Assembly: GCA_028700655.1 (NCBI GenBank)
Contig: JAQVSG010000002.1
Coordinates: 57,844 to 121,843 of the forward strand
DNA from: Caldisericia bacterium
GTDB lineage: Bacteria; Caldisericota; Caldisericia; UBA6126
DNA: 64,000 nt
Reading direction: 5' to 3'
Within the stretch, counting starts at the first letter, position 1; each line of letters begins with the position of its first letter. The notes under the pieces were generated by a model. The model did no database searches and had not been told where the DNA came from. It saw only the letters and a program-made list of their open reading frames with translations. A program made the position numbers and the translations under genes. Positions 6,020-38,635 of this stretch are shown in pieces.

Positions 6020-7309
6020 ATGCTTGCTGAAGAAATCATTATTCGACTTCCGCGTTTTCATGAAACCCCCACTCTTGGTCGCATAAAATCAGCACTGAGC
6101 TATGCAAACATGGATACAATAACCTTTCCTTGGGTTCAAATTGCGGGTTCTAAAGGAAAAGGTTCAGTTAGCACAATGTTAGATTCTATATTTCGCCAAT
6201 GCGGGTACAAAACAGGTCTTTTTTTATCGCCTCATATTCATACCATTAGAGAACGTATCACCATCCACAACAAGCCTATCGAATCCCTCTTTTTTAACGA
6301 ACTGTATGAAACTTTACAGCAAATTCTTCCTCCCCATTTATTTGAAGAACTAACTTTCTTTGAAACAATGACTTTATTAGCCGTTATGGCCTTTCAACAA
6401 TCTAAAATTGATATTGCCTTTTTTGAAACCGGCCTAGGTGGACGTTTGGACGCCACTACAGCGATACCCAATCCAATTCTATCAATCATCACATTGATAG
6501 AATTGGAACATACAAATAAATTGGGAAACACCATCGAAGAAATAGCCAAAGAAAAAGCAGGTATTATTCGTCCACACACTCCTGTTTTAATGTCAAAACA
6601 AAGTTTAGAGGCAGCCCTTGTCATTCAAGAAGTGGCTGCCCAGAAGAATAGTAAATTGTATTCTCTGGATCATCTAACCTTTGTACATCGGACATCAGAT
6701 TTCGTGAAACCTTTTGAATCCTTTGTTTTGAATAGCGGCATTACGGGCAATACCTATTCTAATATCGAGTGTAAACCGCTGGGTTTTCATCAGATAAACA
6801 ATGCAACTGTAGCTATAGTGGCCTCTGAATTGTTGACAAAAAACGGCTTTGTAGTTACTGAAAAAAACTTTCGTGACGCCCTTTCCTCGATCTCCATTCC
6901 ATGTCGTTTTGAAATCATTACAAACAAACAGAATATGTGGATTTTGGATGGAGCCCACACATTCCATTCTTGCAATTTTGTTTCAAAAACCGTTAAAGAG
7001 CGTTTTCCTGGTCAGAAAATTCCCGTTATCTTTGGATGCAAACACAATAAAAATGCACCATCACTACTCCAACCTCTTCTTGAGATTGCTTCTTCTTTTC
7101 TTTTTACAGATATCCCTGAAATTCACTCTTATCCTCTCGAATCTTTAACAAGGATTGTACAAGATTTTCATTTTTCTGGCTCTGTTCAATCGTATTATTC
7201 CAGTGAATCTACTTCCTTCTTGCAATTGCTAGAGGATAAGCCAGTCCTTATAACAGGTTCGTTAATTTTGGCAAGCTATTTTCGATCCATCCTTTTACCG
7301 AAGTTTTAA
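6020..7309 (+). CDS. folC: folylpolyglutamate synthase / dihydrofolate synthase (Mur-ligase family)
   Basis: 429 aa. P-loop IAGSKGKGSVS of Mur ligases. Conserved valS-folC synteny. Confidence 0.8.
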   Translation: MLAEEIIIRLPRFHETPTLGRIKSALSYANMDTITFPWVQIAGSKGKGSVSTMLDSIFRQCGYKTGLFLSPHIHTIRERITIHNKPIESLFFNELYETLQQILPPHLFEELTFFETMTLLAVMAFQQSKIDIAFFETGLGGRLDATTAIPNPILSIITLIELEHTNKLGNTIEEIAKEKAGIIRPHTPVLMSKQSLEAALVIQEVAAQKNSKLYSLDHLTFVHRTSDFVKPFESFVLNSGITGNTYSNIECKPLGFHQINNATVAIVASELLTKNGFVVTEKNFRDALSSISIPCRFEIITNKQNMWILDGAHTFHSCNFVSKTVKERFPGQKIPVIFGCKHNKNAPSLLQPLLEIASSFLFTDIPEIHSYPLESLTRIVQDFHFSGSVQSYYSSESTSFLQLLEDKPVLITGSLILASYFRSILLPKF

Positions 7310-7318
7310 GGGGGTTTT

Positions 7319-7834
7319 ATGTCAATTACTTCCGATATGCTAATCCGCTATCTCGATTTTGTAATCGTTGCTGTTGCCATTATTCTTACTCTTTGGATTG
7401 CATTTGATTCTTTTCGTCGATATCAAAACAAGTGGATTTTACCCACTATTGTTTTTGTGGTCACGTTTGGACCTTTTCTAATACAAAGTTTTTTCCAATC
7501 AGGAAACATTAAGTGGTTGTTGATCTCCATTTTCTTTTGGATTGTATATTTAATCATACGGCCAGAATTCACTTTAGAAGAAACTGTATCCATGGAGACA
7601 GATCAGCGTATTCGAGAGTTAACCAAAAAATATTATGAATTTGAACTAAGCAAAGCTGGAAACATTTGCCCTGTTTGTGGTTTACCGATTGAGAAAGACT
7701 TCAAAATTTGTCCAAATTGCTTTACAAAACTACGGAGTGAGTGTCCTCATTGTAAACATTTGATGGACATTAACTGGTCGGTATGCCCCTATTGTGAACA
7801 CAAAGAAAGGGATTCAAAGAAACATGAAGATTAA
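7319..7834 (+). CDS. membrane protein with C-terminal double zinc-ribbon
   Basis: 171 aa. Two or three TM helices, then CPVCG...CPNC...CPHC...CPYC (four CxxC pairs). The 3' end overlaps the rnfC start by 11 nt. Confidence 0.5.
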   Translation: MSITSDMLIRYLDFVIVAVAIILTLWIAFDSFRRYQNKWILPTIVFVVTFGPFLIQSFFQSGNIKWLLISIFFWIVYLIIRPEFTLEETVSMETDQRIRELTKKYYEFELSKAGNICPVCGLPIEKDFKICPNCFTKLRSECPHCKHLMDINWSVCPYCEHKERDSKKHED

Positions 7835-9149
7835 GACATTTCATCCCGGGGGAATGCACATCCCCGATCACAAAGATCGAACAAAGGATAAACCCATTGT
7901 TGATATGGCACCTGGTAAAGACCTTTTATATCCATTGTCCCAACATGTAGGAATACCTGCTGAACCGATTGTAGAAGCAGGACAAGAAGTTCTTATTGGA
8001 CAATTAATCGCCAAGGCTCAAGGTGACTTTTCATCGAATATTCACGCTTCTGTTTCTGGCATTGTAAAAGATATCAAAGAATACCCTCATCCTATCTCTG
8101 GATTAGGCACTGCCATTCACATTGAAAACGATTTTCAGTATTCGATGCTCCCGTCCATAAAACCGCCTTGCTTTGAATCCGAAATAAACTTAAAAGCATT
8201 TGTTTCTTTTATTCAAGAAGCAGGTATTGTAGGAATGGGAGGAGCCACATTCCCCACTCATCTAAAATTAAATCCTCCTCCGGATTCCTCTGTTGATACC
8301 TATATTATTAATGGAGCCGAGTGTGAACCCTATTTAACTTGTGATCACCGCTTAATGCTTGAAAAAACCAAAGAACTCTTTGATGGCTTACAAATCGTCC
8401 AATCGTATCTTCGTTTTAAAAAGGTAATCGTCGGTATTGAAAACAATAAGATGGATGCCATTGAACACCTCCAAAACTATGTCCAAGAAAATCCCATGGA
8501 TGTACCCGTAGAAATTGTGCCCTTGGTTAAAAAATACCCACAAGGCGCTGAAAAAAATCTGATTTTTGCTACAACAAATCGGATTGTTCCTGTCGGTAAA
8601 TTGCCTTTTTCTGTGGGTTGTATTGTGCAAAATGTAGGTACGCTTATTGCCATATCGCAAGCTATCCGCGAAGGCACCCCCATGATTTACCGTGTCCTAA
8701 CAGCTAGTGGAGACTGCCTACAAGAGCCAAAAAACATTCGCGTTCCTATTGGAACCCTTCTTTCAGATATTGTAACTTTTTGTGGAGGCTTTGTTAAAGA
8801 CCCTAAAGAATTGGTGTTTGGTGGCCCTATGATGGGGGTTAATCAACGCTCACAAGACGTCCCCGTATTAAAGGGAACCTCTGGAATCATTTTTTTAAGT
8901 ACCCTGGAGCCTTTGCATGAAACTTCTTGCATTCGGTGCGGTCGATGTATTGAAAATTGCCCTGCTGGATTGATGCCATATCGATTTGTAGAACTCGCTA
9001 AAAAGAATCACTTCGAGGATGCAAACCACTATTTTGTGAACTCCTGTATTGAATGTGGCCTATGTACTTACAATTGCCCAGCACGAATTCCAATTTTAAA
9101 TTATATCCGTGTAACCAAACAGGAATTAAAAAGAAAAAGGAGTCGTTGA
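7824..9149 (+). CDS. rnfC: Rnf electron-transport complex subunit C (NADH-binding, 2x[4Fe-4S])
   Basis: Two ferredoxin motifs, CIRCGRCIENCP and CIECGLCTYNCP, at the C-terminus, and GxGGAxFP-type NADH site GMGGATFPT. The start was chosen at ATG 7824 (MKIKTFHPGG); the ORF track's longer start at 7794 is also possible. Confidence 0.9.
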   Translation: MKIKTFHPGGMHIPDHKDRTKDKPIVDMAPGKDLLYPLSQHVGIPAEPIVEAGQEVLIGQLIAKAQGDFSSNIHASVSGIVKDIKEYPHPISGLGTAIHIENDFQYSMLPSIKPPCFESEINLKAFVSFIQEAGIVGMGGATFPTHLKLNPPPDSSVDTYIINGAECEPYLTCDHRLMLEKTKELFDGLQIVQSYLRFKKVIVGIENNKMDAIEHLQNYVQENPMDVPVEIVPLVKKYPQGAEKNLIFATTNRIVPVGKLPFSVGCIVQNVGTLIAISQAIREGTPMIYRVLTASGDCLQEPKNIRVPIGTLLSDIVTFCGGFVKDPKELVFGGPMMGVNQRSQDVPVLKGTSGIIFLSTLEPLHETSCIRCGRCIENCPAGLMPYRFVELAKKNHFEDANHYFVNSCIECGLCTYNCPARIPILNYIRVTKQELKRKRSR

Positions 9150-10102
9150 TGAGCAACTATGTAATTACTGCTTCTCCCCATATTCGAAATAAAATAAATA
9201 CAGCTTTTCTAATGAACATGGTCAGTATTTCTTTACTTCCTGCTACCATAGGGGGTATTGTTATCTTCGGTTGGACAAACACTCTTCCCTTAATCGCATT
9301 ATCTATCATCTCGGCTGTTGTTAGTGAAGCACTCTTCCAAAAACTTTTAAAACTTCCCATGTCTTATTTAGATGGTAGTGCCATTGTTACGGGTTTTCTC
9401 TTGGCCCTTTGTTGCCCCCCTGGTATCCCTCTATGGTTACCTGTTATCGGTAGTTTTTTTGCTATTTTTTCGAAACAAGTCTTTGGAGGTTTGGGTCATA
9501 ATCCATTTAACCCTGCTCTTATTGGACGCGCTTTCTTGGTTTTATCCTTCCCTGCACATATGACCTCTTGGTTAAAACCCTTTGACGTAGTGACAACCTC
9601 CACCCCCCTGGCAGTGTTTTCTGAGAAAGGAATGAGTGGAGTTCTTGGTCTCTTTCAAGGATCTGTCTCTACTATGCATAAAAGTATGTTTTGGGGCATT
9701 CGTGGAGGCTGCATTGGAGAAGTTTTCATTCTTGGACTTCTTCTCGGTCTCGCCCTTTTATTACTAACTAAAACAATTCAATGGTATGTTCCTGTTACAT
9801 ACATGGGTACTGTATTTTTGGTATCGTGGATGCTAGGAATGGATCCCATATTTTCAATTTTAAGTGGCGGAGTTATGTTTGGCGCTTTTTTTATGGCAAC
9901 AGACTACGTTACTTCTCCGATGCTTCCACAAAGCAAAATTATATATGGTTTCGGTTGTGGTTTCATCAATGTTATGATCCGTTTCTTTGCCAATATGCCC
10001 GAGGGTACAACTTTTGCAATTTTACTCATGAACGTCATTACACCCATGTTGGATAACCGGATTAAAAAACCTGTTGGATTTGTAAAGGAGAAAACCTCAT
10101 GA
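9149..10102 (+). CDS. rnfD: Rnf complex subunit D (polytopic membrane, FMN attachment)
   Basis: ATG 9149 overlaps the rnfC TGA (ATGA-type overlap) and is preceded by AAAAAGGAG. The product is a polytopic NqrB/RnfD-like membrane protein (…GGLGHNPFNPALIGRAFL…). Confidence 0.9.
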   Translation: MSNYVITASPHIRNKINTAFLMNMVSISLLPATIGGIVIFGWTNTLPLIALSIISAVVSEALFQKLLKLPMSYLDGSAIVTGFLLALCCPPGIPLWLPVIGSFFAIFSKQVFGGLGHNPFNPALIGRAFLVLSFPAHMTSWLKPFDVVTTSTPLAVFSEKGMSGVLGLFQGSVSTMHKSMFWGIRGGCIGEVFILGLLLGLALLLLTKTIQWYVPVTYMGTVFLVSWMLGMDPIFSILSGGVMFGAFFMATDYVTSPMLPQSKIIYGFGCGFINVMIRFFANMPEGTTFAILLMNVITPMLDNRIKKPVGFVKEKTS

Positions 10103-10710
10103 AACAAAACCAAACGAAACAGATTGTTACACTCGGTATAACATTATCCTTATATTGTATTATAGCTGCTCTTGCCCTGAGTGTAACCTATTCTGTCACT
10201 CTTCCTCAAATCCAATTGCAACAGAAAAAAGCGACCGAAGAAAGCATGAAAAGTATATACCCCGATGCAATATCCTTTACTCTATGTACGGACAATGAGC
10301 AAAATCCTATATTCCATAATCAAGTCATCGATAATTGTATTACCCTTGACTGCATATATGAGGGTAGGGATCAAACGAATTTGCTTCTTGGGTACTTAGT
10401 AAAGGGTTCTTCTCTAGGATATGGTGGTCCTATCGTGTTTATCTATGGCTTGGATCTGGACGATACGATACATTCAGTTTCTATAATTGAGCATTCAGAA
10501 ACCCCTGGTTTGGGAGCAAACGTCATAAAAGATCACTTTTTAAATCAATTTAAAGGGAAACTTACGTCAGACGCTTTTCTCGTAAAACAAGACATTACCC
10601 CAATTACTGCATCAACAATAACTTCAAAAGCTCTTTCTGAGGGAATCAAAAAAAGTGTTACCTATGTGAGGGAAAATATAACGGAGTTAACTAATGAAAA
10701 CGAAAATTAA
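10099..10710 (+). CDS. rnfG: Rnf complex subunit G (FMN-binding)
   Basis: 203 aa. N-terminal TM anchor, NqrC/RnfG FMN-binding domain, and a conserved flavinylated threonine context (TASTITSKA). 4-nt overlap with rnfD. Confidence 0.85.
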   Translation: MKQNQTKQIVTLGITLSLYCIIAALALSVTYSVTLPQIQLQQKKATEESMKSIYPDAISFTLCTDNEQNPIFHNQVIDNCITLDCIYEGRDQTNLLLGYLVKGSSLGYGGPIVFIYGLDLDDTIHSVSIIEHSETPGLGANVIKDHFLNQFKGKLTSDAFLVKQDITPITASTITSKALSEGIKKSVTYVRENITELTNENEN

Positions 10711-11311
10711 ACAACTTTTAACCAAAGGGTTGCTTAAGGAAAACCCAGTCTTTGTATTGATGCTTGGTCTTTGCTCGGTGCTAGCTGTTTCTGTATCGGT
10801 TATAAATGCCTTGGGAATGACACTTGCTTTTACATTTGTTACCGTCCTTTCTGAAGTTACCATTTCTGTATTACGGAAATGGATTCCAAAAAGTCTACGA
10901 ATTCCCATCTTTATCGTTATTATTGCAAGTTTTGTTACCATCCTTCAATTCCTTTTGCAAGCCTATTTCCCCTCTTTGAATAAAGCCCTTGGTATTTTTA
11001 TTCCCCTTATCGTAGTAAATTGTATCATTATTGGGCGTATTGAATCTTTTGCATCCAAGAAACCTGTATTTGATTCTATTCTAGATGGATTGGGGATTAG
11101 TCTTGGGTATGGTATCGCCATACTATCTATTGCCATTGTGCGTGAAATACTTGGCAACGGTACAATTCTTGGGTATTCTCTCTTCGGAACCTCTTTTGAG
11201 CCGGCATTAATGTTTATTCTTCCTCCTGGAGCATTTCTAGTGATTGGTATTGAAATTGGAATCATCAACCATGTCTCTAAAAAAGCTTCTAGAAAAGAGG
11301 CATCTAAATGA
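10694..11311 (+). CDS. rnfE: Rnf complex subunit E
   Basis: 205 aa polytopic NqrD/RnfE family protein (…GLCSVLAVS…FIPLIVVNCIIIGR…). Confidence 0.85.
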   Translation: MKTKIKQLLTKGLLKENPVFVLMLGLCSVLAVSVSVINALGMTLAFTFVTVLSEVTISVLRKWIPKSLRIPIFIVIIASFVTILQFLLQAYFPSLNKALGIFIPLIVVNCIIIGRIESFASKKPVFDSILDGLGISLGYGIAILSIAIVREILGNGTILGYSLFGTSFEPALMFILPPGAFLVIGIEIGIINHVSKKASRKEASK

Positions 11312-11883
11312 ATTTAGTGAACATACTAATACAAACAATTTTCTCACAAAACTTTATTTTTATGCGCTTTTTAGGACTTTGTCCTTTCTTTGGTTTAACA
11401 AACGATATGGACTCTTCCATAGGAATGGGTGGAGCCGTCACCTTTGTTACTGTAATGGCTTCTGTTGTTAGCTATTTTGTGTATTACTTTGTCCTTATTC
11501 CCTTTGGTGTTGAATATCTACAAACCATTGCTTTTATTCTAACCATCGCTGTGTTTGTTCAACTTGTTGAAATATATCTAAAGAAAATGATTCCCAATCT
11601 TTATAAAGTAATGGGCATCTATTTACCCCTCATTACTACAAACTGTATGATTCTAGGAGTTACTCTAATCAATATTCAAGAGGGTTATTCTTTGATGGAA
11701 ACTATAGTTTTCGCTTTTGGTTCTTCCGTTGGTTTTACGCTGGCAATGATTCTTATGACAGCCATACGAATACGCATTGGAAATGCCAACGTCCCTGCTT
11801 TTTTTAAAGGAGCTCCCATTGTATTTCTAGCTGCTTCATTTATTGCAATTGCATTTATGGGACTACAAGGGTTGGGTGGCTAA
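11308..11883 (+). CDS. rnfA: Rnf complex subunit A
   Basis: 191 aa NqrE/RnfA family protein (…GLCPFFG…YLPLITTNCMILGV…), a paralogue of rnfE. 4-nt overlap with rnfE. Confidence 0.85.
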   Translation: MNLVNILIQTIFSQNFIFMRFLGLCPFFGLTNDMDSSIGMGGAVTFVTVMASVVSYFVYYFVLIPFGVEYLQTIAFILTIAVFVQLVEIYLKKMIPNLYKVMGIYLPLITTNCMILGVTLINIQEGYSLMETIVFAFGSSVGFTLAMILMTAIRIRIGNANVPAFFKGAPIVFLAASFIAIAFMGLQGLGG

Positions 11884-11884
11884 T

Positions 11885-12709
11885 ATGAATTGGATGGTAA
11901 TAGTTTCCTCTGTCGTTATTCTTTTAGCTCTTGGTTTATTGTTCGGATGGATGTTAGGAATTTTTTCCAAAGTGTTTTACGTAAAAGAAAATCCTTTGAT
12001 CGAAAAAATTAAAGAAGCTTTACCTCAAGCTAATTGTGGTGCATGTGGTTTCTCTGGGTGTGGTGCTTTTGCTGAAGCCGTAGCCAACGGAAATGCCCCC
12101 ATACATGGTTGTGTTGCTGGAGGGCAAGAAACCATTGACGCTTTAGCTCAAATACTTGGTATTTCTCAAAGTACACCACAAACAAAATATGTTGCCGTTG
12201 TCTTGTGTAAAGGAGATAAGGATGCAGCATTGATCAATGCTGATGCCAAAGGAGCTTCCACCTGTTTAATGGCTCATTATTTACGATTGGATGATAAAGT
12301 TTGCAGATTTGGTTGTTTGGGTTTTGGTGATTGCGTAAATGCATGTCCATTTGGAGCTTTATCGATGACAGAAAAAGGCCTCCCTTTTGTAAACACAGAA
12401 CTATGTACAGGCTGTGGTTTATGTGTAGAAAAATGTCCTCGAGAAATAATAAAGCTGTTCCCTGACACCAAACGCGTGTTATGTTTGTGCAGCAATCACG
12501 ATACCGGTTCCTATGTCCGCAAGGCTTGTAAAGTGGGTTGTATTTCATGTGGACTATGTGTAAAAAAATGTCCTGAAAAAGCAATTGCTTTTAAGAATAA
12601 TTTGCCAGTGATCGATATTGAGAAATGTAATCTTTGTGGAAAATGTGTTACAATATGTCCAATGCATTCTCTAACATTACGACAAGCTTTAACGGAGAAA
12701 GATGAATAA
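11885..12709 (+). CDS. rnfB: Rnf complex subunit B (polyferredoxin)
   Basis: Start MNWMVIVSS at 11885, 1 nt after the rnfA TAA. The product has an N-terminal TM helix plus a CxxCxxC cluster (ANCGACGFSGCG) and several CxxCxxCxxxCP ferredoxin motifs. Confidence 0.85.
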   Translation: MNWMVIVSSVVILLALGLLFGWMLGIFSKVFYVKENPLIEKIKEALPQANCGACGFSGCGAFAEAVANGNAPIHGCVAGGQETIDALAQILGISQSTPQTKYVAVVLCKGDKDAALINADAKGASTCLMAHYLRLDDKVCRFGCLGFGDCVNACPFGALSMTEKGLPFVNTELCTGCGLCVEKCPREIIKLFPDTKRVLCLCSNHDTGSYVRKACKVGCISCGLCVKKCPEKAIAFKNNLPVIDIEKCNLCGKCVTICPMHSLTLRQALTEKDE

Positions 12710-15593
12710 AAAAAACAATCGATCTTTTATTGTGCGGTTATCGTTACTAATAGTGAGTAGTAGTTTCCTTTTTTCTTCCGTTTTTTTGGCCTATGCTGCA
12801 AAACCTTTGTATTTGACAATTCAGAATCAAAGCGGAACTTCGTATGAACGAGCTCTTGTACGCATACCCTTAGAAAACCCTCCCAACGGCAGTTATCGAT
12901 TTGTTGAAGAAGGAACTGATCCTGTTCATGACAATGTAAAAAATGCCATTATAACAACGCCACAGAATAATTGTCTCCTGGTTACCACCTCTCTCCAAAG
13001 TGAGCAGACAAAAGTTTTTCATATTCAAGAAAAAAATGCATCCAACATCAATACGATTCCAACTTCTACAGAAGCAGGTACCTTCTTTCACTTTGTAAAT
13101 TATGAGAATGCCTACATTGTTTCCTGTGAAAATGACAACCAAATTGACATTTATACAGAAAATGAAGAGCTCTTAGACACGATTCTACTCCAAAAAGGAA
13201 AATCATATACGTTTTCTTCATCAAATCCAACGAATATCCTAATTAAATCCAAAAAACCAGTCTTTGTATATGAAAGTTCTTTGTCTCTTGATCCTTTGTC
13301 TAATAAAGAATCGGAGGATAGCGATACTACAACTCTGTATGGAGATCATTTATACTTTTTCCATCCTGGTCACCTTTGGATATCCTCGTATCAAAAAAAT
13401 ACCATCGTAAAAATTCTCGACGAAAATCAACTCCAAGTAAAAGACATCACAATTCACCCCGAACAAGGTGTATTTGTCGAAGACCTACCACCCGGGGTTT
13501 ACTCCATCATTGCCAATTCTCCTGTAACCGCACAGTTTGGGTATGTAGACAACGAAAACTTCTCTTTTGTAATTGGCCAATCCAACCTTATTCATGGGTT
13601 TTCTTTCGGAGACCTTTTGTTTTATTCTCCCTATGACAATGCACAGATAAAGATTCAATATGGAAACAAAAACAGCAATTTTGTTTTGGAAAAAAAGGGA
13701 GATACAAAGCTTCTTTCATTAATTCAAAGTTTTTCCCCTTCTTTACCCGAATACATTTATTTCACTGCTACTTGCAATGTTCCTTTTTTTGTCATGTCTT
13801 TTTCTTCGGGTAAAAACTTTGGTGGTGAATTCTCTCCAGGTTACCACGGTGCCTACCTTGATACTGATTTTACTATGATTTCCTCAAGAATCTCTAAAGA
13901 GTTCTCAAAAGATCAAAAAAGTTTGATTGAAATATACAGTCAACATCCTCATACAAAAGCCACATTCTCAAACAGTAATCCAGAGAACGATCAAACGGTA
14001 ACTCTGAACGAATTCGCAATATACAATTATTCCTCTTCTTCTTCCTTGGAGAAAGTGAATATCTCATCCGATGAACCTCTTTTGTGCCTACAGCTCCACA
14101 ATTATACAAACAAGGGGTTGTTCTATTATGTTCCCCCCCTTGACAATACGGCAATCACCTTTTCTTTTAGCACATCTCCTTCCGATCAAGGAGGTCTTTT
14201 CGCACACCAATCAAATACCACACTGCACCCTCAAATGTTTTTTTATCCTCCTCGGTGGAAAGCTTTTTTCTTGCAAATTCTTAACCCAGACTTAGTTCTT
14301 TTTACTGTTTTTTTTGCAGGGCTACTCATTCTTCTTTTCATCATTTTTATACTTCTAGTTTTCAAACATCGTAAGGAAGATATAGATTCACAGTTCACAG
14401 TTTCGTCCTCTCACCAGACGCTCCATACCCCTTCTACGAATTCTAACGAAGAACCGTTTTCTTTGCCAGAAAAAGAAAATTCTTTCTCTTCCATTGAAAA
14501 AATTCATAAAAAATCTCTTCCAACTGTAAAAAAACAAGAACCACCAAACGACGACGAAATGGAAGCCAAACCCCCTATAATGTCATTCTCTAAAGAAGCT
14601 GACATGCAAAGTAGTAACGAACCCATACCGGCCACGCAAGAATCGAATAAGAAAATTCGATTTGACCCAGCAACCACTCCTTCTTGGCTTTCAGAAGAGC
14701 ATAAAGAAGGCACTCCTGGCAAAACAGAAATCGATGACGAAGAAATCCCACCTTTCTCTAGCACACAAAGACACCGAAAAGGGTTACGAATTACGGATCC
14801 CAACCTTGAAGACATTGATTTTCAAGAAGGGATTCCTTCTTTGGATATAGACGAAGAAGATATCTTTATCCAGATTAAAGGTAAACGTACTATCCCTAAA
14901 ACTCAACAAAATGAATGCCAAAAACCATCTCATACTTCGTACTCATCCGAGAATGAATCCACACCTTCACCAAAACCCTTAGTGGACCCATTCTTAACAG
15001 AGAATTCGTCCCCTTCTACAAACCCCATACAACAAGAGGGCTTTCAAAATTCTTCACAAGAGCCTATGAAAACAAACCAAGCCAAAGAAAACTTAAAACA
15101 GACTCTGTCAAAATCCTGTTCCCCTCAAAATGATCAAAATTTTGAATCCAAGAATGCTAAAAATATGATTGAAAGAATCTATCAAGAACCTGTCTCTGAA
15201 AAGTTAACTAAAAATACAATGGTTCCTTCTCTTGAAAATCTTTTCTATACATCGGTTGTGTTTGATCCTGGTTCTGCCAATCGCTTATATATGGAAGGGT
15301 ACCTTCAACATTTTTCCAAAGGATACATTGGTTCCACTTCCGCAAAAAAGATAAACTCCTCAATCGTTGCGCTCTTAAAATCGATAAAACTGAATCCCAA
15401 CGATATCGCCAAAGCGTCCACTATGGCCGACGTTTGTGATACGTTTGAAGAAGCAGGGAAAGCGTTTGCTCTTTGTAAAAAGAAAAGAATCAAAGTATAT
15501 ATCACTTCGTATAAGCTTCCAAAATTCCTACAAGGCATCACAGTCTATTCTGTACACGATATTGTAAAGCGTTTTCATTCACAGGATGAATGA
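12702..15593 (+). CDS. large Rnf-operon-associated type-I membrane protein, function unknown
   Basis: 963 aa. Signal peptide, ~500-aa extracytoplasmic domain, single TM helix (LVLFTVFFAGLLILLFIIFILLVF), ~250-aa S/P/E/Q-rich low-complexity linker, and a ~130-aa C-terminal globular domain. It overlaps the rnfB stop by 8 nt and the apbE start by 8 nt. Confidence 0.6.
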   Translation: MNKKNNRSFIVRLSLLIVSSSFLFSSVFLAYAAKPLYLTIQNQSGTSYERALVRIPLENPPNGSYRFVEEGTDPVHDNVKNAIITTPQNNCLLVTTSLQSEQTKVFHIQEKNASNINTIPTSTEAGTFFHFVNYENAYIVSCENDNQIDIYTENEELLDTILLQKGKSYTFSSSNPTNILIKSKKPVFVYESSLSLDPLSNKESEDSDTTTLYGDHLYFFHPGHLWISSYQKNTIVKILDENQLQVKDITIHPEQGVFVEDLPPGVYSIIANSPVTAQFGYVDNENFSFVIGQSNLIHGFSFGDLLFYSPYDNAQIKIQYGNKNSNFVLEKKGDTKLLSLIQSFSPSLPEYIYFTATCNVPFFVMSFSSGKNFGGEFSPGYHGAYLDTDFTMISSRISKEFSKDQKSLIEIYSQHPHTKATFSNSNPENDQTVTLNEFAIYNYSSSSSLEKVNISSDEPLLCLQLHNYTNKGLFYYVPPLDNTAITFSFSTSPSDQGGLFAHQSNTTLHPQMFFYPPRWKAFFLQILNPDLVLFTVFFAGLLILLFIIFILLVFKHRKEDIDSQFTVSSSHQTLHTPSTNSNEEPFSLPEKENSFSSIEKIHKKSLPTVKKQEPPNDDEMEAKPPIMSFSKEADMQSSNEPIPATQESNKKIRFDPATTPSWLSEEHKEGTPGKTEIDDEEIPPFSSTQRHRKGLRITDPNLEDIDFQEGIPSLDIDEEDIFIQIKGKRTIPKTQQNECQKPSHTSYSSENESTPSPKPLVDPFLTENSSPSTNPIQQEGFQNSSQEPMKTNQAKENLKQTLSKSCSPQNDQNFESKNAKNMIERIYQEPVSEKLTKNTMVPSLENLFYTSVVFDPGSANRLYMEGYLQHFSKGYIGSTSAKKINSSIVALLKSIKLNPNDIAKASTMADVCDTFEEAGKAFALCKKKRIKVYITSYKLPKFLQGITVYSVHDIVKRFHSQDE

Positions 15594-16590
15594 TTTAAAA
15601 AAACCACAACGTACTATTGTTATTTTTGTTCTTTCACTAGTTATGTTTTTTGTTTCAGCCTGTAATCCAAATCGCTCCGATCCTTTCTATAATTGGACTG
15701 AACGTACTTTTTTCACAATGAATACGTTTCTTACAATTCAAGTGCCCACAGAACAATACTCCGATTCTATGATGGAAGAATTGATGTCGATGGTCAATCA
15801 AACGGATAAAAAACTCAATGTTTATACCATTGGGTCAGACCTATATCGACTTCAACAAAATGCAGGTTATGTTCCTATAGTAGTCGATCCTGAGACCTTC
15901 TTTATCATACAAAAAGGAATTTCTTTTAGCGATCAGTCAGGGGGTGTTTTTGATATTACTGTCGGACCCTTGATTTCATTATACTGCTTTCACGATCCAC
16001 ATCCGCATGTACCTACCCAAGAAGAATTGGACAGAATACTTCCTCTTGTGAGTTATAAGGACATTCAGATGAACGAAGAAGAAAGCACCGTATTTTTACC
16101 TATTCAGGGGATGTATATTGATCTCTCCGGAATTTTAAAAGGGTATATCCTAGATAAAATTTCTGATTTTTTTTTGAACCACGGAATGGATGATTATTAT
16201 GTTAACTTCGGAGGCAATCTATCGATTTCTCGAGACGAACCACTGTACATTGGCATTGAAAACCCCTTTCAAAAAACCACACAAAAGGGATTTTTTCTGT
16301 CTCGGGGATTTGTATCTACATCCTCCTCTACCCATCAATATTTTGAGCAAAATGGAGTTCGATACTCCCATATTGTGCATCCACTGACAGGCTCTGCACA
16401 ACCCGTTATTGCTTCATCAACAGTGGCTACATGGAGTGGAATTGAATCTGATTTTTTATCCACTTATTTTTTTTTAACAGGGACTCACCCAAACCATGAG
16501 GTTCGTAGTCTATATTTTGCACAATCGTCCATATTTTTATACCATCTTACGGAAGCCTTTGAGGTATATGCAGAAAATTACAGTTCGTAA
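15586..16590 (+). CDS. apbE: FAD:protein FMN transferase (ApbE family lipoprotein)
   Basis: 334 aa. Lipobox VSAC. ApbE-family motifs (…MNTFLTIQV…ITVGPLISL…YVNFGGNL…HIVHPLTG). ApbE flavinylates RnfG/RnfD, which is consistent with the genomic context. Confidence 0.85.
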   Translation: MNDLKKPQRTIVIFVLSLVMFFVSACNPNRSDPFYNWTERTFFTMNTFLTIQVPTEQYSDSMMEELMSMVNQTDKKLNVYTIGSDLYRLQQNAGYVPIVVDPETFFIIQKGISFSDQSGGVFDITVGPLISLYCFHDPHPHVPTQEELDRILPLVSYKDIQMNEEESTVFLPIQGMYIDLSGILKGYILDKISDFFLNHGMDDYYVNFGGNLSISRDEPLYIGIENPFQKTTQKGFFLSRGFVSTSSSTHQYFEQNGVRYSHIVHPLTGSAQPVIASSTVATWSGIESDFLSTYFFLTGTHPNHEVRSLYFAQSSIFLYHLTEAFEVYAENYSS

Positions 16591-17077
16591 AATCACAACC
16601 TTTTCTTTTTTGCTAGGCATTGGAATCATTCTCCATGTATTTGAGATCTATATTTCTGTTCCGATCGGCGGATATATGTTGAAACCAGGGATTTCAAACA
16701 TTGTGGTGCTACTTTGTATGTATCTTTTAAGTTTTCACGATGCTGTATTTCTTGCTTTTTCCAGAGGTCTCCTTTCTGGATTGTTTGAACCCTCCCTTAA
16801 TGGTATCACTATTTGTATCACGTTTGGCGGTATTGTTCTTAGTCTCATTGGAATGGGTTTTTTCCATATGCTTCGTTCACAACGCATTGTTACTATAAGT
16901 ATAGCAGGTGCAATTGCTCACAATATTGGTCAATTAATTGTTGTTCTTTTTTTTATTCCTGATAAATATTTACTATACTATCTACCATTACTGATAATTT
17001 CTGGTTTTTTTGGAGGCTTAATCACAGGATGGATTGTTACGTTATCATTGCCAAAGATAAAACAACCTGTGACATAA
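16568..17077 (+). CDS. small polytopic membrane protein (Gx-transporter / heptaprenyl-diphosphate-synthase-component-I-like)
   Basis: ~170 aa with 5 predicted TM helices. Proteins of this family often follow apbE. Start at ATG 16568; the alternative 16496 overlaps apbE more extensively. Confidence 0.45.
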   Translation: MQKITVRKITTFSFLLGIGIILHVFEIYISVPIGGYMLKPGISNIVVLLCMYLLSFHDAVFLAFSRGLLSGLFEPSLNGITICITFGGIVLSLIGMGFFHMLRSQRIVTISIAGAIAHNIGQLIVVLFFIPDKYLLYYLPLLIISGFFGGLITGWIVTLSLPKIKQPVT

Positions 17078-17099
17078 ATTTTATTAAATGGAGTGAATC

Positions 17100-18137
17100 A
17101 TGATATTTGGTCATTTTGGTAAGGATATTGCTATTGATCTTGGAACTGCAAACACACTTGTATATATTGCTGGTAAGGGGATCATGTTAAGAGAACCATC
17201 CATTGTAGCTGTACAACGTGATACTGGAGAGATTATAGCCATTGGGAACGAAGCAAAACGTATGGCAGGTCGAGTTCCTGAAGCTATTCAGATTATTCGT
17301 CCTTTAAAAGATGGTGTTATTGCCAATTTTGAAGTCACTCAAAAACTAATTGAATACCTGATCCAAAAAGTGGGTGCACGGAAAGGACTCTTGGGAAAAA
17401 TTCGCCCAAGGCTTGTCATAGGGATTCCATCTGGAATTACTGAAGTCGAAATGAGAGCCGTAATCGAAGCTGGCTATCAAGCAGGCGCAAAATATGTTGG
17501 CTTGGTACAAGAACCAATGGCGGCATCCTTAGGAGCAAACCTACCCGTCAATGAACCCACCGGAAATATGATTGTTGATATTGGTGGAGGTACGTGCGAA
17601 GTGGCTGTTGTTTCTCTCAACGGAATTGTTGCTAAAAACTCTATTCGTATTGCCGGTGATGAGATGAATGAAGCCATATTGCAATATTTAAAAAGACAAT
17701 ACAATCTTTTGGTAGGAATATATACCGCCGAGGAGATCAAAATTGAGATCGGTACTGCTTATCCCAGCGACGACATTACCTCCGCTGAAATTAAAGGAAG
17801 AGATTTAATCACAGGACTTCCTCGAACCGTCACAATCACCTCTGAAGAAACACGCATTGCACTCAATGATGTTCTAATCAGTATCATGGAAGCATTAAAG
17901 GCAACTCTTGAAATCACACCTCCCGATTTAGCAGCTGATATTATCGATCGAGGTATATTTTTGGCCGGTGGAGGATCTTTGATTCGCGGAATGGCACGAT
18001 ATATTTCGGAAGGAACAGGCATATTGGTTTCCAATGCTGAAAATCCTGTACTTTGCGTAGCCTTAGGTGCAGGGAAAATTGTTGAAAATCTTGAGAAACT
18101 TATGCCTTTGTTGCTTAAAGTTAAATATTATCGCTAA
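17100..18137 (+). CDS. mreB: rod-shape determining actin homologue MreB
   Basis: 345 aa. DLGTANTLVY phosphate-1 motif and VDIGGGTCEVAV phosphate-2 motif. Confidence 0.95.
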   Translation: MIFGHFGKDIAIDLGTANTLVYIAGKGIMLREPSIVAVQRDTGEIIAIGNEAKRMAGRVPEAIQIIRPLKDGVIANFEVTQKLIEYLIQKVGARKGLLGKIRPRLVIGIPSGITEVEMRAVIEAGYQAGAKYVGLVQEPMAASLGANLPVNEPTGNMIVDIGGGTCEVAVVSLNGIVAKNSIRIAGDEMNEAILQYLKRQYNLLVGIYTAEEIKIEIGTAYPSDDITSAEIKGRDLITGLPRTVTITSEETRIALNDVLISIMEALKATLEITPPDLAADIIDRGIFLAGGGSLIRGMARYISEGTGILVSNAENPVLCVALGAGKIVENLEKLMPLLLKVKYYR

Positions 18138-22777: not shown

Positions 22778-23011
22778 ATGCCTTCCAAGTTAACAGACCG
22801 CTTAAAAAGAATTTTAGATGAAGATAGAAAAGTTTTATCCCCACAAAGTGAAAGAGACCTTCGGAAAAAATTAGCTGCAGTGTTAAGCCAATATTTTCCG
22901 ATTGATCAAAGAAAACTACACATTCGCGTCGTTAGAACCAATTATCAAACTTCCTACGAGTTAACGGCTGAAATGCCCATAAAAAAAAGTGAGTTAGACA
23001 AAGAAAAATGA
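22778..23011 (+). CDS. minE: cell division topological specificity factor MinE
   Basis: 77 aa. Position directly after minD. N-terminal basic/amphipathic segment. Sequence similarity to MinE is moderate, so the call rests partly on context. Confidence 0.6.
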   Translation: MPSKLTDRLKRILDEDRKVLSPQSERDLRKKLAAVLSQYFPIDQRKLHIRVVRTNYQTSYELTAEMPIKKSELDKEK

Positions 23012-24171
23012 AAATTCTTCAAACAGGTGATTTTTTCTTTGGTATTCAGAATATGGGGAAAAAAGAACCATACCCGTATGGTTTTTCTCAAATACACGAT
23101 TATGTTCGTTATTTATCTTTTATCTGCCAATATGCAATCGATCACCAAATAGATGTAGTGCTACTTTCCGGCAATCTTTTCTTTTCTTCTTTACCCAACG
23201 ACTTCCTCCAATCGGTTGTGCGAGAACGTATAAAAGACTTGGCCCAATCCAATATTCATTGCGTTGTATTGTCTGGAAAATATGATCAACCCTGCCAAGG
23301 TACTTCCTTTTTAGAGATGCTTCCTTCTCTATCTTTTCAGTATGTTCACACTATGCAGAAAGACGAATGTATTGTTTTAAAAAAAGACTCTGATGCTTTG
23401 CAAATTGCAGCACTCCCCTATAAAAAGATGAGCCCATCAGACGCAACTAGTCTTTCCTCTCGTTCAGAAATTGCAGAAAATCGGATTTCCAAACTGATTC
23501 CAAAGATCCAACCCGATCTATTTTCTGTCCTTTTTATGCAGGCCACTCTTTCATTCTTAGAACCCTTTTTTTTACTTCCCGATATACCTGCATTTCATGC
23601 CTCCTATTTACAAAGTCTTCCTTTTCAATATTTTGCCTTTGGTGGTCAACCCTTCAAAAAGATTGAGAAACTGTCGACATTGGAATCGTGGATTGGGTAC
23701 CCAGGTTCTTTGGGTGAATTTGAGTATGCAGACTCCACCATTGAAAGAGGCTTTCTTGTGTACGATTCTCTTTCTATTTCTGAACCTCCTCACTTCATTC
23801 CAAACCCTGAGCAAAGATTAACTGCTCTTATCCGCATTTCTGCCAATTCAGAAAAAGAAATTATGGAAAAACTGAACGAGGAGTTTCTTTTAAATGATTA
23901 CCGTGAACATATAACGCGAATTGTTTTACACACCGATGCAAATTTATCATTACCTTCAATTCATGGTAGTTTTGAAGAACATTGTTTTCATATTCACAGC
24001 ATTGAACAACAGGGTAAACAATTGCGTTATGTTGGCGATGAAGAAATACTGCCCATTCGTAGATATGTCGATTTCTATCTTGAAGAAAAGCGTTTACCAT
24101 TGCCGGAAATCTTGGAAGAAGAAGTGAATACTCATTGCTTATCCTACTTATATAACGAGTTGCCAGAATGA
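23008..24171 (+). CDS. SbcD/Mre11-like calcineurin-fold protein with all metal-binding motifs substituted (predicted inactive nuclease)
   Basis: 387 aa, collinear with E. coli SbcD. Motif I is MKILQTGDFFFG (SbcD: MRILHTSDWHLG). Motif II is LLSGNLFF (SbcD: VAGDVFD). Motif III is VVLSGKYD (SbcD: VLAGNHD). Later motifs are FAFGGQ and GYPGS instead of GH-containing motifs. The start overlaps the minE stop (ATGA). Confidence 0.75.
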   Translation: MKILQTGDFFFGIQNMGKKEPYPYGFSQIHDYVRYLSFICQYAIDHQIDVVLLSGNLFFSSLPNDFLQSVVRERIKDLAQSNIHCVVLSGKYDQPCQGTSFLEMLPSLSFQYVHTMQKDECIVLKKDSDALQIAALPYKKMSPSDATSLSSRSEIAENRISKLIPKIQPDLFSVLFMQATLSFLEPFFLLPDIPAFHASYLQSLPFQYFAFGGQPFKKIEKLSTLESWIGYPGSLGEFEYADSTIERGFLVYDSLSISEPPHFIPNPEQRLTALIRISANSEKEIMEKLNEEFLLNDYREHITRIVLHTDANLSLPSIHGSFEEHCFHIHSIEQQGKQLRYVGDEEILPIRRYVDFYLEEKRLPLPEILEEEVNTHCLSYLYNELPE

Positions 24172-38300: not shown

Positions 38301-38635
38301 CTACAATCTCCTATATCCAATGTATCCTACGTTGCAGTCCTCCAAGTGAAAAGGAATATGTACCAACGTTTCAACTCTCAGGACTTGTTCCTTATTTCAC
38401 CCCAATGGATATACCAAAAACCTTGATCCATCCAACAATAGTATCCAAAGAACGAATCTTGTTAGGAGATTTTAATGCGAATGAAAACATTGACGATGAG
38501 GATCTAGAACTGTTACAAAGAAATTTTGGAAGAACATCCAAAGACTCTACTTGGAATCCTATCTTTGATTGTTTTCAAGATGGCGTTATTAACATAAAAG
38601 ATCTGTTTTTGATCGCAAAACAAAAAGATCTTTAG
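35342..38635 (+). CDS. secreted S8 subtilisin-family serine protease with inserted PA domain and C-terminal type-I dockerin-like module
   Basis: 1097 aa. Signal peptide. Catalytic D (DSGIDYNHPDF), H (HGTHVAGIAAG) and S (GTSMATPVITG). PA-domain insert (…CGFGSKDECSKTDLQGKIAFIQRG…). C-terminal Ca-binding repeats (GDFNANENIDDEDLELLQ… and FDCFQDGVINIKDLFLI…) resemble dockerin. Confidence 0.85.
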   Translation: MMKAYFFKYIVLVIVTCLFLVPSYAYSYSNHTNIEVRKFQNFPSISKSSFSSSKRVRVIVKCKLPSVVEKNSHQPQFHMQSHNIIEQETLYKNVLVQKQTHILQSLPRTDSIQILGQWQIVYNGIAMSLPEYTLPFLAKHPEVASIYLDNTLFYPVRDMTVETIHRNEVPALEKYQNTIIEPNPDIRIGIVDSGIDYNHPDFYPSGFSEAQSKVAGGWDCYYPEEDLEKEKPGDPDPIDDSTFTGGHGTHVAGIAAGNNSQSTSLHGICPDATLFAYKVFPSHKNSGAPSYTLITACEYAVQDQCSVINLSLGHGGENPSIVEDNPYFEAFRMTKESGVMIVAAAGNGGSRTQYNQWPIDAPGVFDSILQVAASDDRLSQPFTFHTPVSEKMFLGQNSRFSPPFNAELDGLDIVYCGFGSKDECSKTDLQGKIAFIQRGPKENGISFFEKNYNAKEAGATACIIFNYDERSFSPSLVSEGIEDPYSYNFIPCMMVSATMQKQLQEVVDGFGYLSFQSIQPLIASYSSAGPCYSANDGFFKPEITAPGTSLYSAIPTFDPVESSPQWGKKQGTSMATPVITGCAAILRHTYPFLHIDEISALMMNTATILKNPLTGDAFSYFYQGSGQIHLKNAMMSPLVATPSSIVLQTTDFDSPIEIQLRNITNQVVSGTVSTEIVSHHDYADAYIGVFDKPFVTIDPHSTETVKCWLYPQKADIPDIIEGAIWIQVLPDEKKPEQDVKLHIPFVVSKKSMTSIHLPISEASLSVDTFHMNKDNYGFLSFRLNTGTISRSTYMTEEGSILRSIDKVRNYADQVFLTIHDEYGNAIESIFFGDSIPVGRYDFFWSGYDSYKQPFLPDGRYYFTVSIPGYEEIYLTTVHEDQKETHRKIRVDNHAFESNPIPFEIKHSKLPPFPIVEICTPQRVQSEDHFEVEVKLHNAYQGLFDVTIELDPAFQILYISENSTGSLEIQKNTNRIRWIHKQTEEFVPTISYIQCILRCSPPSEKEYVPTFQLSGLVPYFTPMDIPKTLIHPTIVSKERILLGDFNANENIDDEDLELLQRNFGRTSKDSTWNPIFDCFQDGVINIKDLFLIAKQKDL

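Follow-up and report, generated by a model that had tools for sequence, protein, structure and literature searches.

A predicted bitopic membrane protein with a PIN-like tail, encoded between rnfB and apbE in a Caldisericota genome, is linked to Rnf by position

Extra genes are found in or beside several rnf operons; they include RnfH, RseC (upstream of rnfC in Clostridium ljungdahlii), and MA0658 and MA0665, which flank rnf in Methanosarcina acetivorans. The occurrence of apbE beside rnf is accounted for by RnfG and RnfD. In architecture, the bitopic tethers ZipA and RodZ combine a disordered linker with a terminal globular domain. The window analyzed here, a 64,000-nucleotide stretch of Caldisericota DNA, contains a large gene between rnfB and apbE, which we call X. 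Like RnfH, RseC, MA0658, and MA0665, X encodes a membrane protein specific to its lineage and lies within an rnf transcription unit. However, it shows no homology to any of them, is far larger, combines an extensive ectodomain with a PIN-like tail, and is kept by a lineage that has no rnf at the locus. The gene and its surroundings are as follows.

7319..7834, + strand: DZR gene, encoding a 171-aa membrane protein (Pfam PF12773, sequence)
7794..12709, + strand: rnfC-rnfD-rnfG-rnfE-rnfA-rnfB cassette (Pfam)
12694..12697, + strand: Shine-Dalgarno-like GGAG inside the 3' end of rnfB, 4 nt before the ATG of X
12702..15593, + strand: gene X, whole, stop codon included; 963 aa, ATG start (ORF list and translation)
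15586-16590, + strand: apbE (Pfam, NCBIfam)
16496-17077, + strand: PF07456 (Hpre_diP_synt_I) membrane-protein gene (Pfam, NCBIfam)

X is an ORF of 2.9 kb in DNA of 37% GC and, given this length and its profile matches, lies far beyond random expectation. The initial annotation described this ORF with an 8-nt overlap at either end, and direct reading of the sequence agrees: the rnfB stop codon TAA occupies 12707-12709, within X, whereas the X stop codon TGA occupies 15591-15593, downstream of the apbE ATG at 15586. The GGAG preceding X may serve translational coupling. No strong terminator was found between rnfB, X, and apbE, and intergenic space is lacking as well, thus co-transcription is likely. 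X is therefore probably transcribed together with rnf and apbE in this genome, and perhaps also translationally coupled with them, in line with the co-expression proposed earlier. The genes belong to an array of 23 co-directional genes spanning 512-22768 (~22 kb). Of 32 same-strand junctions, 14 can overlap, so the 8-nt overlaps of X are typical of the genome and no special mark of functional coupling. Short overlaps in this array say little about function.

The initial annotation also noted that X is unlike any Rnf subunit. Indeed, the six upstream genes match the six Rnf families, while X shows no homology to RnfA, B, C, D, E, G, or H in Pfam/NCBIfam searches, where it reaches PF17517 only. 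Its layout of signal peptide, ectodomain, single TM helix, linker, and compact C-terminal domain is borne out by hydropathy, AF2 modeling, and alignment.

12702..12803, + strand: signal peptide, aa 1-34 (Kyte-Doolittle scan and sequence; cleavage predicted only)
12804..13055, + strand: N-terminal beta module, aa 35-118 (AF2 strands)
13065..14147, + strand: four tandem beta repeats of ~85 aa, aa 122-482, of PF17517 (IgGFc_binding) type (Pfam, hhalign)
14229..14363, + strand: conserved juxtamembrane helix, aa ~510-526, and single TM helix, aa 536-554 (AF2, hydropathy, alignment A1)
14370..15236, + strand: low-complexity linker, aa 557-845 (composition, alignment A1)
14832..14843, + strand: [I/L/F]-P-x-L motif, aa 711-714 (alignment A1; sequences P0044, P0054, P0056, P0057, and P0059)
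15237..15590, + strand: C-terminal PIN-like alpha/beta domain, aa 846-963 (AF2, Foldseek, alignments A4 and A5)

The signal peptide is composed of a basic n-region and a hydrophobic core (aa 15-33), followed by AYA|AK, which resembles a signal peptidase I site; inspection of the sequence found no lipobox Cys in it. The TM helix scores 3.4 on the Kyte-Doolittle scale and is followed by KHRK, which fits the positive-inside rule. With a signal peptide, one TM helix, and positive charges on the cytoplasmic side, X is predicted to be a type I bitopic (N-out C-in) membrane protein. The juxtamembrane helix, corresponding to the AF2 helices at model residues 476-492, contains the nearly invariant R518 and F522 (alignment A1). 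Across the family, the C-terminal domain is the best-conserved region (mean pairwise identity 48%), ahead of the ectodomain (42%) and the linker (19%).

The ectodomain (~480-500 aa) is predicted to be all-beta, with an AF2 pLDDT of 84.9. It falls in the widespread extracellular family PF17517 with 28.4 bits, above the gathering cut-off of 25.6, an outcome that the initial annotation had named as speaking against a partnership with Rnf. The same profile matches 19 of 24 family members (best E-value 1.3e-9), and in the subgroup without rnf the equivalent of the N-terminal module matches DUF2341 (PF10102; P0056 and P0057). However, X covers only part of the PF17517 profile (positions 120-200 of 297), and no solved structure resembles its model: Foldseek against the PDB gave no real match (TM-score ≤ 0.17). 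The repeats are related to each other, as hhalign links R1 with R2 at 88.7% probability (E 2.6e-6), R1 with R4 at 51.6%, and R3 with R4 at 30%. Invariant Asp, Ser, Thr, Asn, and Gly residues abound in their loops, and the repeats carry the motifs GDSDTTT, QFGYxDxENFS, FSSGxNFGGE, SKEFSKxQK, and HNYTxKGLFYxVPP, which are invariant in the family (alignment A1). Among 51 family members, the heme motif CxxCH occurs in none, an Fe–S-type CxxC motif in only one, and the flavinylation motif [ST]GA[ST] in only one, at a non-conserved site.

The 289-aa linker contains 13% S, 12% E, 10% P, 9% K, and 7% Q and has a net charge of -16. It shows little conservation, with an identity of 19% and 47% gaps, and varies in length from about 100 to 400 aa across the family. 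Its sole conserved element is the [I/L/F]-P-x-L sequence, in which P712 and L714 are invariant in the window's subgroup; the subgroup without rnf has a similar motif, TPKL. We consider it a putative docking motif.

The C-terminal domain of ~115 aa is predicted to be well folded (pLDDT 90.5), with the order beta1-alpha-beta2-alpha-alpha-beta3-alpha-alpha-beta4-beta5-alpha. In Foldseek searches of the PDB, the 13 best matches all come from PIN/VapC domains or from complexes that contain a PIN domain, with probability 1.00, TM-scores of 0.45-0.60, and E about 1e-3. The order of elements and these matches agree with a three-layer alpha/beta/alpha arrangement around a parallel five-stranded sheet, and Foldseek on the AF2 model gives the domain a predicted PIN/VapC-like fold. 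The tail thus resembles the VapC toxins PAE2754 (1v8p), VapC4 (5h4g), and Shigella VapC (5ecw) in predicted fold, and also in the invariant Asp that ends beta1, the acidic residue that starts the helix before beta4, and the Thr/Ser after beta4. Unlike VapC/PIN nucleases, it lacks a sequence-profile match: Pfam searches of 17 and of 20 C-terminal domain sequences returned no PIN family at E ≤ 10, the domain of X has no Pfam or PDB sequence match, and PDB profile searches gave no PIN chain. Moreover, a VapC toxin is free and accompanied by an antitoxin, whereas the tail of X would be tethered to the membrane by a ~290-aa disordered linker, as part of a protein with a secreted ectodomain.

Sixteen residues of the domain are invariant (D855, P856, G857, A859, N860, R861, L862, E865, K882, D901, E917, K927, S936, Y937, L939, and P940). 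When the PIN catalytic positions are mapped by secondary-structure order and alignment A5, the acidic residues D855 and E917 turn out to be conserved, with a further D/E near aa 954. Ser and Tyr occupy the canonical positions that follow beta2 and beta4 in the window's clade, whereas both are D/E in the subgroup of P0036, P0040, P0046, P0050, and P0065, which is acidic at all four canonical positions. Taken together, the window's subgroup, the subgroup without rnf, and three proteins sharing only this domain with X carry Ser or Ala after beta2 and Tyr, Ala, or His after beta4. In the window's clade, two of the four acidic positions canonical for PIN domains thus appear substituted. In the three proteins, one of which is named as from an uncultured archaeon, the domain also sits after a TM helix, behind large ectodomains unrelated to that of X; it thus behaves as a cytoplasmic module that is portable between proteins.

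About 60 homologues of X were found, with 63 profile matches at E ≤ 1e-3, 36 of them at E ≤ 1e-30. The bacterial relatives whose source names an organism belong to Caldisericota, except for one locus labeled Calditrichota and one labeled 'bacterium', and profile searches showed the family to be absent from the many other Rnf-bearing phyla. Judged by these searches, X is restricted to the phylum Caldisericota. The DZR protein, which has three hydrophobic helices at its N-terminus and a double zinc ribbon at its C-terminus, has only 12 detectable homologues, and those with a named organism are from Caldisericia; several of the 12 are on contigs that equal X-bearing contigs in length. Both membrane proteins are phylum-specific, single-copy, and strictly syntenic, and X keeps its position even between deeply diverged genomes, whose ValS proteins share as little as 35-44% identity.

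Across the 30 loci examined, X lies downstream of folC and DZR wherever the upstream flank was retrieved, within the phylum-wide gene string valS-folC-DZR-[rnfCDGEAB]-X. The rnf cassette separates DZR from X in most lineages (25 of 30 loci), and X directly follows rnfB at about 23-24 of the 30 loci and at 24 of the 25 that bear rnf, including 17 of 17 in the window's subgroup together with L020, L021, L024, L025, L027, and L028. The initial annotation had asked whether homologues always sit in rnf operons, and they do not. In one lineage (L018, L019, L022, L023, and L026) DZR is 1 nt from X and rnf genes are absent, an absence that refers to the X locus only, while at L029 a gene on the opposite strand lies between rnfB and X. 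The downstream side is variable, with apbE, NfnAB-like genes, LigB-AMMECR1, AMMECR1, or none of these; apbE comes next in most of the window's subgroup and nowhere else, and one member of that subgroup (L011) has NfnAB-like genes instead. In the same subgroup the array containing X continues into mreBCD-pbp2-minCDE, a neighborhood absent from the other subgroups.

In FolC and ValS trees (neighbour-joining, unbootstrapped, midpoint-rooted), the lineage without rnf falls among rnf-bearing lineages, so X appears to have been retained when the cassette was lost. The adjacency of rnfB and X is probably ancestral, which makes a real functional link with Rnf possible in those lineages. The description of X as a lineage-specific insertion, offered earlier as an alternative, comes nearer the mark, yet the variable element at the locus is the rnf cassette, not X. 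The linkage between X and Rnf is positional.

Rather than a subunit of Rnf, X is most likely a tether or sensor that spans the envelope, a reading suggested by its architecture, to which we give a probability of about 0.5. The exported ectodomain, released from its signal peptide and built from the N-terminal beta module and four PF17517-type repeats, would bind a component of the unusual outer envelope or wall and perform no redox chemistry. The disordered tether with its [I/L/F]PxL motif and the PIN-like domain would then link envelope contact to a protein or RNA partner in the cytoplasm. Since two of four canonical acidic positions appear as Ser and Tyr in the window's clade, the PIN-like domain there is probably non-catalytic and would act as a binding module rather than a Mg-dependent nuclease. 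ZipA and RodZ offer an architectural analogy: X likewise has a TM helix, a long low-complexity cytoplasmic linker, and a small folded cytoplasmic domain, and in the window's subgroup its array runs into mreBCD-pbp2-minCDE. However, X has no sequence or fold relationship with them, its topology and domain types differ, and mre/min genes are absent near X in the other subgroups.

The initial annotation favored an accessory, regulatory, or scaffolding partner of Rnf. X would in that case bind Rnf physically or take part in ApbE-dependent maturation, for example with its ectodomain touching the periplasmic flavin sites of RnfG/RnfD, or by tethering Rnf to the envelope. The near-constant and probably ancestral position after rnfB, the start codon overlapping rnfB behind a Shine-Dalgarno-like GGAG, the apbE gene next to X in most of the window's subgroup, and the predicted location of the ectodomain on the same membrane side as RnfG and ApbE are all consistent with this proposal. 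We nevertheless regard it as unlikely. Close relatives keep an orthologue with the conserved C-terminal domain where the locus has no rnf, which argues against an Rnf subunit; in addition, rnfB and X are parted at L029, the genes downstream of X (apbE included) are inconstant, the family shows no conserved cofactor or flavinylation motif and is missing from the many other Rnf-bearing phyla, and overlapping junctions are the norm in this genome. A narrower proposal, that ApbE flavinylates the ectodomain for extracytosolic electron transfer, draws on the overlap between the X stop codon and the apbE start and on the extracytoplasmic location of the ectodomain. With [ST]GA[ST] in one of 51 members, apbE adjacency confined to the window's subgroup, and RnfG and RnfD already explaining apbE, it is nearly refuted.

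Two other explanations were considered. X could be a one-component transmembrane signaling nuclease, in which an ectodomain ligand controls an active, membrane-tethered PIN RNase cutting specific transcripts near the membrane. The predicted fold, the invariant D855 at the end of beta1, the acidic residue at the N-terminus of the helix before beta4, the D/E after beta5, and the fully acidic P0036/P0040/P0046/P0050/P0065 subgroup agree with such an enzyme, but it is improbable given the non-acidic residues at two canonical positions in the window's subgroup, the subgroup without rnf, and the three proteins sharing only this domain, the invariant R861, K882, and K927, which suit anion or partner binding better than metal catalysis, and the missing PIN profile match. 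Alternatively, X might be a surface protein or adhesin of a generic kind, placed where it is by historical accident, with a tail that serves only anchoring or oligomerisation and has no specific partner. PF17517 is widespread among extracellular proteins, related tails occur on unrelated surface proteins, one named archaeal, and PIN domains commonly oligomerise. Here too we see little chance, as a single-copy gene in strict synteny across deep divergence, a C-terminal domain that is the most conserved region with 16 invariant residues, and a conserved linker motif arguing for a specific cytoplasmic interaction do not fit a generic role.

For Rnf biology, X mostly calls for caution: overlapping codons that join a large gene to rnf and apbE do not by themselves make it an Rnf component, and automated annotation should not spread the Rnf label to genes like it. 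To our knowledge, Caldisericota have almost no cultured members. Caldiserica possess an electron-lucent outer envelope (PMC7736352). With few cultured members and an unusual envelope in the phylum, X and the DZR protein are reasonable candidates for envelope-specific machinery. The C-terminal domain represents an uncatalogued PIN-like family that occurs in two domains of life, in each case solely as the cytoplasmic end of a surface protein. Speculatively, and with long odds, this undescribed membrane-tethered family could be the cytoplasmic output of a new kind of one-component system. Such a system would let an extracytoplasmic ligand govern the cleavage of RNA, or the binding of RNA or protein, at the membrane; in Caldisericota it would be wired into the Rnf transcription unit, coordinating envelope state with ferredoxin-driven ion pumping. 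If the domain binds RNA or a defined partner, it would bring a new architecture to transmembrane signaling.

The gene X encodes a 963-aa bitopic membrane protein and lies between rnfB and apbE, within 23 co-directional genes (window 512-22768) that overlap or are separated by gaps of mostly ≤ 22 nt. The array is ordered valS-folC-DZR-rnfCDGEAB-X-apbE-PF07456-mreBC(D)-pbp2, followed by three further ORFs, whose equivalent positions at the related loci L001, L002, and L004 are occupied by minC, minD, and minE. On the 5' side of X, Pfam identifies valS, a folC-type Mur ligase, the gene of a membrane protein with a double zinc ribbon (DZR), and rnfC, D, G, E, A, and B, while apbE, a PF07456 membrane protein gene, mreB, mreC, a 159-aa ORF, and pbp2 are on the 3' side. 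The two genes central to the analysis are as follows.

7319-7834, DZR, 171 aa, PF12773
12702-15593, + strand, X, 963 aa, ATG start, TGA stop at 15591-15593

Read from the sequence, rnfB ends with TAA at 12707-12709 and apbE begins with ATG at 15586, hence X overlaps each of its neighbors by 8 nt. A GGAG is located 4 nt 5' of its start codon. The initial annotation described the ORF, the two overlaps, and the membrane architecture correctly wherever these could be checked. It also proposed that X is co-expressed with rnf and apbE, which is very likely in this organism given the overlaps and the tiny gaps. Overlaps are the genomic default here, since 14 of the 32 same-strand junctions are able to overlap; the arrangement of X thus supports co-transcription with its neighbors, yet says little about functional partnership. 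In Bacillus subtilis, valS-folC ... mreBCD-minCD forms an old syntenic block with lineage-specific genes in between, and the Caldisericota array resembles this block, its cargo being DZR, rnf, X, and apbE.

Promoter-like sites were fewer than in shuffled sequences (27 against 32.7), and terminator-like hairpins in window 7000-18000 numbered 15 against 8.2 +/- 3.0, with the reservation for both counts that the consensus may not apply to Caldisericota. All 15 hairpins are weak, with stems of 5-9 pairs, just 3 of them G-C. None lies at a gene junction in this region and several lie inside coding sequence, including four within X (13596-13615, 14178-14194, 14836-14859, and 15294-15306). The scan therefore gives no evidence for transcriptional isolation of X, a possibility raised in the initial annotation. 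Elsewhere in the window, a 387-aa ORF lacking a Pfam match (23008-24171) precedes a 990-aa SMC/SbcC-like ATPase (AAA_23; 24168-27140), and a 1097-aa secreted subtilase combines Peptidase_S8 with PA, FlgD_ig, and I9 propeptide domains (35342-38635).

Gene context across related loci was taken as the decisive test of a link between X and Rnf.

Gene order around X at the compared loci
Window's subgroup (17 loci): valS-folC-DZR-rnfCDGEAB-X-apbE-PF07456-mreBC-pbp2, in 15 of the 16 loci with downstream sequence, L011 being the exception
L011 (window's subgroup): rnfB-X, NfnAB-like genes, nusA-infB, without apbE
L028: rnfB-X-LigB-AMMECR1
L020, L021, L024, L025, and L027: DZR-rnfCDGEA, a truncated RnfB of 97-103 aa, X, unrelated genes
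L029: rnfB separated from X by an opposite-strand PatA_N gene
L018, L019, L022, L023, and L026 (rnf-less lineage): (valS-)folC-DZR-X-AMMECR1, no rnf genes, 1 nt from DZR stop to X start

The PF07456 gene (Hpre_diP_synt_I; window 16496-17077) keeps its position after apbE in the same 15 of 16 loci, again with L011 as the sole exception; its listed start lies about 95 nt inside apbE, so the real one is probably further downstream. At L011 10940-13172, X (754 aa) is followed by a DHODB_Fe-S_bind/NAD_binding_1 gene and then a Fer4_20/Pyr_redox_2 gene, so that another ferredoxin-linked, NfnAB-like enzyme adjoins X. The short RnfB proteins (L020 7650-7961, L024 7670-7963, and L027 7649-7945, for example) keep the PF04060 Fe-S domain and are devoid of the ferredoxin-like 4Fe-4S domains of the 288-aa RnfB in the window, which poses the question of the electron donor or acceptor in those organisms.

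The constant partners of X are folC and the DZR membrane protein. DZR, which begins with three hydrophobic helices and ends in a double zinc ribbon, follows folC and precedes the rnf/X block wherever the upstream flank was retrieved, and it directly abuts X where rnf is absent. The DZR proteins of the rnf-less lineage are homologous over their full length. No more than 12 homologues were found, from Caldisericia where an organism is named, and several are on contigs that match X-bearing contigs in length. DZR may be the real partner of X. In neighbor-joining trees, the FolC and ValS fragments of the rnf-less lineage group with rnf-bearing lineages, across the midpoint root from the window's subgroup (no bootstraps, no outgroup). 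With the rnf-less lineage placed among rnf-bearing ones, loss of the rnf cassette with retention of X and DZR is the more parsimonious history on these unbootstrapped, midpoint-rooted trees.

A word-indexed search retrieved 30 proteins related to X, and all those with a named organism come from Caldisericia MAGs. Scanning one genome per GTDB species gave 13 loci, titled Caldisericota, Caldiserica, or Caldisericia in 11 cases, Calditrichota in one, and 'bacterium' in one; none of them came from Caldisericum exile. The locus with the Calditrichota title (L006, DAIMET010000003.1) is fully syntenic with the window, with syntenic proteins 70-97% identical, and is probably a mislabeled Caldisericota MAG. 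At L016 9001-11767, flanking genes 73-97% identical to those of the window enclose an X homologue with an ectodomain match confined to 9288-10256 (45% identity), for which a frameshift, an error in the assembly, or local divergence of the ectodomain could account. When 1.84 billion cluster representatives were searched exhaustively with a HMMER profile, 63 proteins were found at E <= 1e-3, including more distant ones with the same overall architecture, which are from Caldisericota where the source names an organism.

Hydropathy analysis of X reveals an N-terminal hydrophobic segment (aa 15-33) followed by AYA|AK, as well as one strong TM helix (aa 536-554) with KHRK behind it. The ectodomain matches Pfam PF17517 (IgGFc_binding) with 28.4 bits (gathering threshold 25.6), and 19 of 24 relatives match this family too. 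Its AlphaFold2 model, built from a 25-sequence alignment, is all-beta (pLDDT 84.9), and profile-profile comparison of sub-alignments resolves it into tandem repeats of about 85 aa, with R1 and R2 strongly related (88.7% probability, E 2.6e-6) and weaker links to R3 and R4. A Foldseek search of this model against the PDB found no resembling solved structure; bicupins, binary-toxin pores, and glycosidases were among the spurious matches (TM-score <= 0.17). The invariant ectodomain motifs (GDSDTTT, QFGYxDxENFS, FSSGxNFGGE, SKEFSKxQK, and HNYTxKGLFYxVPP) are rich in acidic and hydroxyl residues, and a motif check detected no conserved Cys, CxxCH, CxxC, or [ST]GA[ST]. A redox ectodomain was rejected because heme motif, Fe-S motif, and conserved Cys are all lacking, and a role as ApbE substrate because the flavinylation motif [ST]GA[ST] is absent. 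Judged from its motifs, the ectodomain resembles neither a redox module nor a substrate of ApbE. The linker behind the TM helix is composed of 289 aa (S 13%, E 12%, P 10%, K 9%; net charge -16) and is poorly conserved across the family (identity 19%, gaps 47%). It holds one conserved short motif, [I/L/F]PxL (aa 711-714), and the similar TPKL is present in the rnf-less subgroup.

The C-terminal domain is the best-conserved part of X (48% mean pairwise identity). It has no significant match in Pfam, NCBIfam, or PDB profile searches, and a profile search of the word-indexed database with the superfamily alignment (A5) returned three fragments only. A RodZ_C match in the homologue P0037, below the Pfam threshold, and receiver-domain matches with E about 1 were judged not significant. 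The AlphaFold2 model is confident (pLDDT 90.5), and its best 13 Foldseek matches in the PDB are PIN/VapC domains or PIN-containing complexes, among them 1v8p, 7by3, 5h4g, 5ecw, 5wzf, and 6ifc (probability 1.00, TM-scores 0.45-0.60); other PIN-like nucleases, such as PRORP and the Rrp44 PIN domain, follow at lower rank. In A5, two residues are invariant, K927 and D855, the latter closing strand beta1; also shared in general are an acid at the N-terminus of the helix preceding beta4 and a Thr/Ser behind beta4. The subgroup of P0036, P0040, P0046, P0050, and P0065 has acids at all four canonical PIN positions: at the end of beta1, after beta2 (SAKD/SAKE), at the helix N-terminus, and after beta4 (VVSD/IVDD). 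In the window's subgroup, Ser follows beta2 and Tyr follows beta4, and both acids are also missing in the rnf-less subgroup and in three proteins sharing only the C-terminal domain. Since these positions were mapped from secondary-structure order, known VapC structures, and A5 rather than by superposition, we grade the PIN-like domain of the window's clade as only likely to be non-catalytic.

Those three proteins (P0072, P0078, and P0079) carry the domain directly after the TM helix, with no long linker, and their large ectodomains, containing CarboxypepD_reg, NosD/beta-helix, or CGGxC repeats, are unrelated to that of X. As it occurs behind the TM helix of unrelated ectodomains, the C-terminal domain acts like a portable module that forms the cytoplasmic tail of surface proteins. 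The source given for P0072 is an uncultured archaeon, where its gene (L030 354-2018) is located just upstream of the conserved S6e-aIF2gamma-PIN_9-Rpo7-Spt4 cluster.

We tentatively propose, with a probability of roughly 35-40% for the mechanistic part, that X is an envelope-spanning tether or sensor. Its PF17517 repeat ectodomain would bind an envelope component. On the cytoplasmic side, the disordered tether, which bears the [I/L/F]PxL motif, and the PIN-like domain would contact a partner, perhaps RNA or the zinc-ribbon protein. According to PMC7736352, which cites Mori et al. 2009, Caldiserica possess an outer envelope that is unusual and electron-lucent. The initial annotation suggested that X could be an accessory, regulatory, or scaffolding partner of Rnf, or else a lineage-specific insertion. 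X survives at loci without rnf, its downstream neighbors vary, cofactor motifs are missing, and no other Rnf-bearing phylum among those sampled has X; these results speak against an Rnf subunit or dedicated accessory, and we consider such a role doubtful.

An active signaling RNase would fit the PIN-like fold and the complete set of acids in one subgroup, and is unlikely with two of these acids apparently replaced in the window's clade. That X is a generic surface protein agrees with the wide distribution of the extracellular PF17517 family, and seems quite unlikely alongside a C-terminal domain more conserved than the rest of X and a strictly syntenic position. Flavinylation by ApbE, suggested by gene adjacency, is extremely improbable for a protein devoid of the target motif.

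Among the parts of X, the PF17517 ectodomain and the PIN-like fold are of known kinds; what is new is the family of the C-terminal domain and its architecture, in which a secreted-repeat protein bears a PIN-like tail tethered to the membrane. The family is annotated as 'hypothetical protein', once as 'DUF2341 domain-containing protein', and literature searches on Caldisericota with Rnf and on PF17517 gave no description of X. Our analysis weakens the idea of an Rnf partner and places the X family within one poorly studied phylum, where the PIN-like tail module, present also on an archaeal-named protein, and the strictly syntenic DZR-X pair provide concrete, testable leads.
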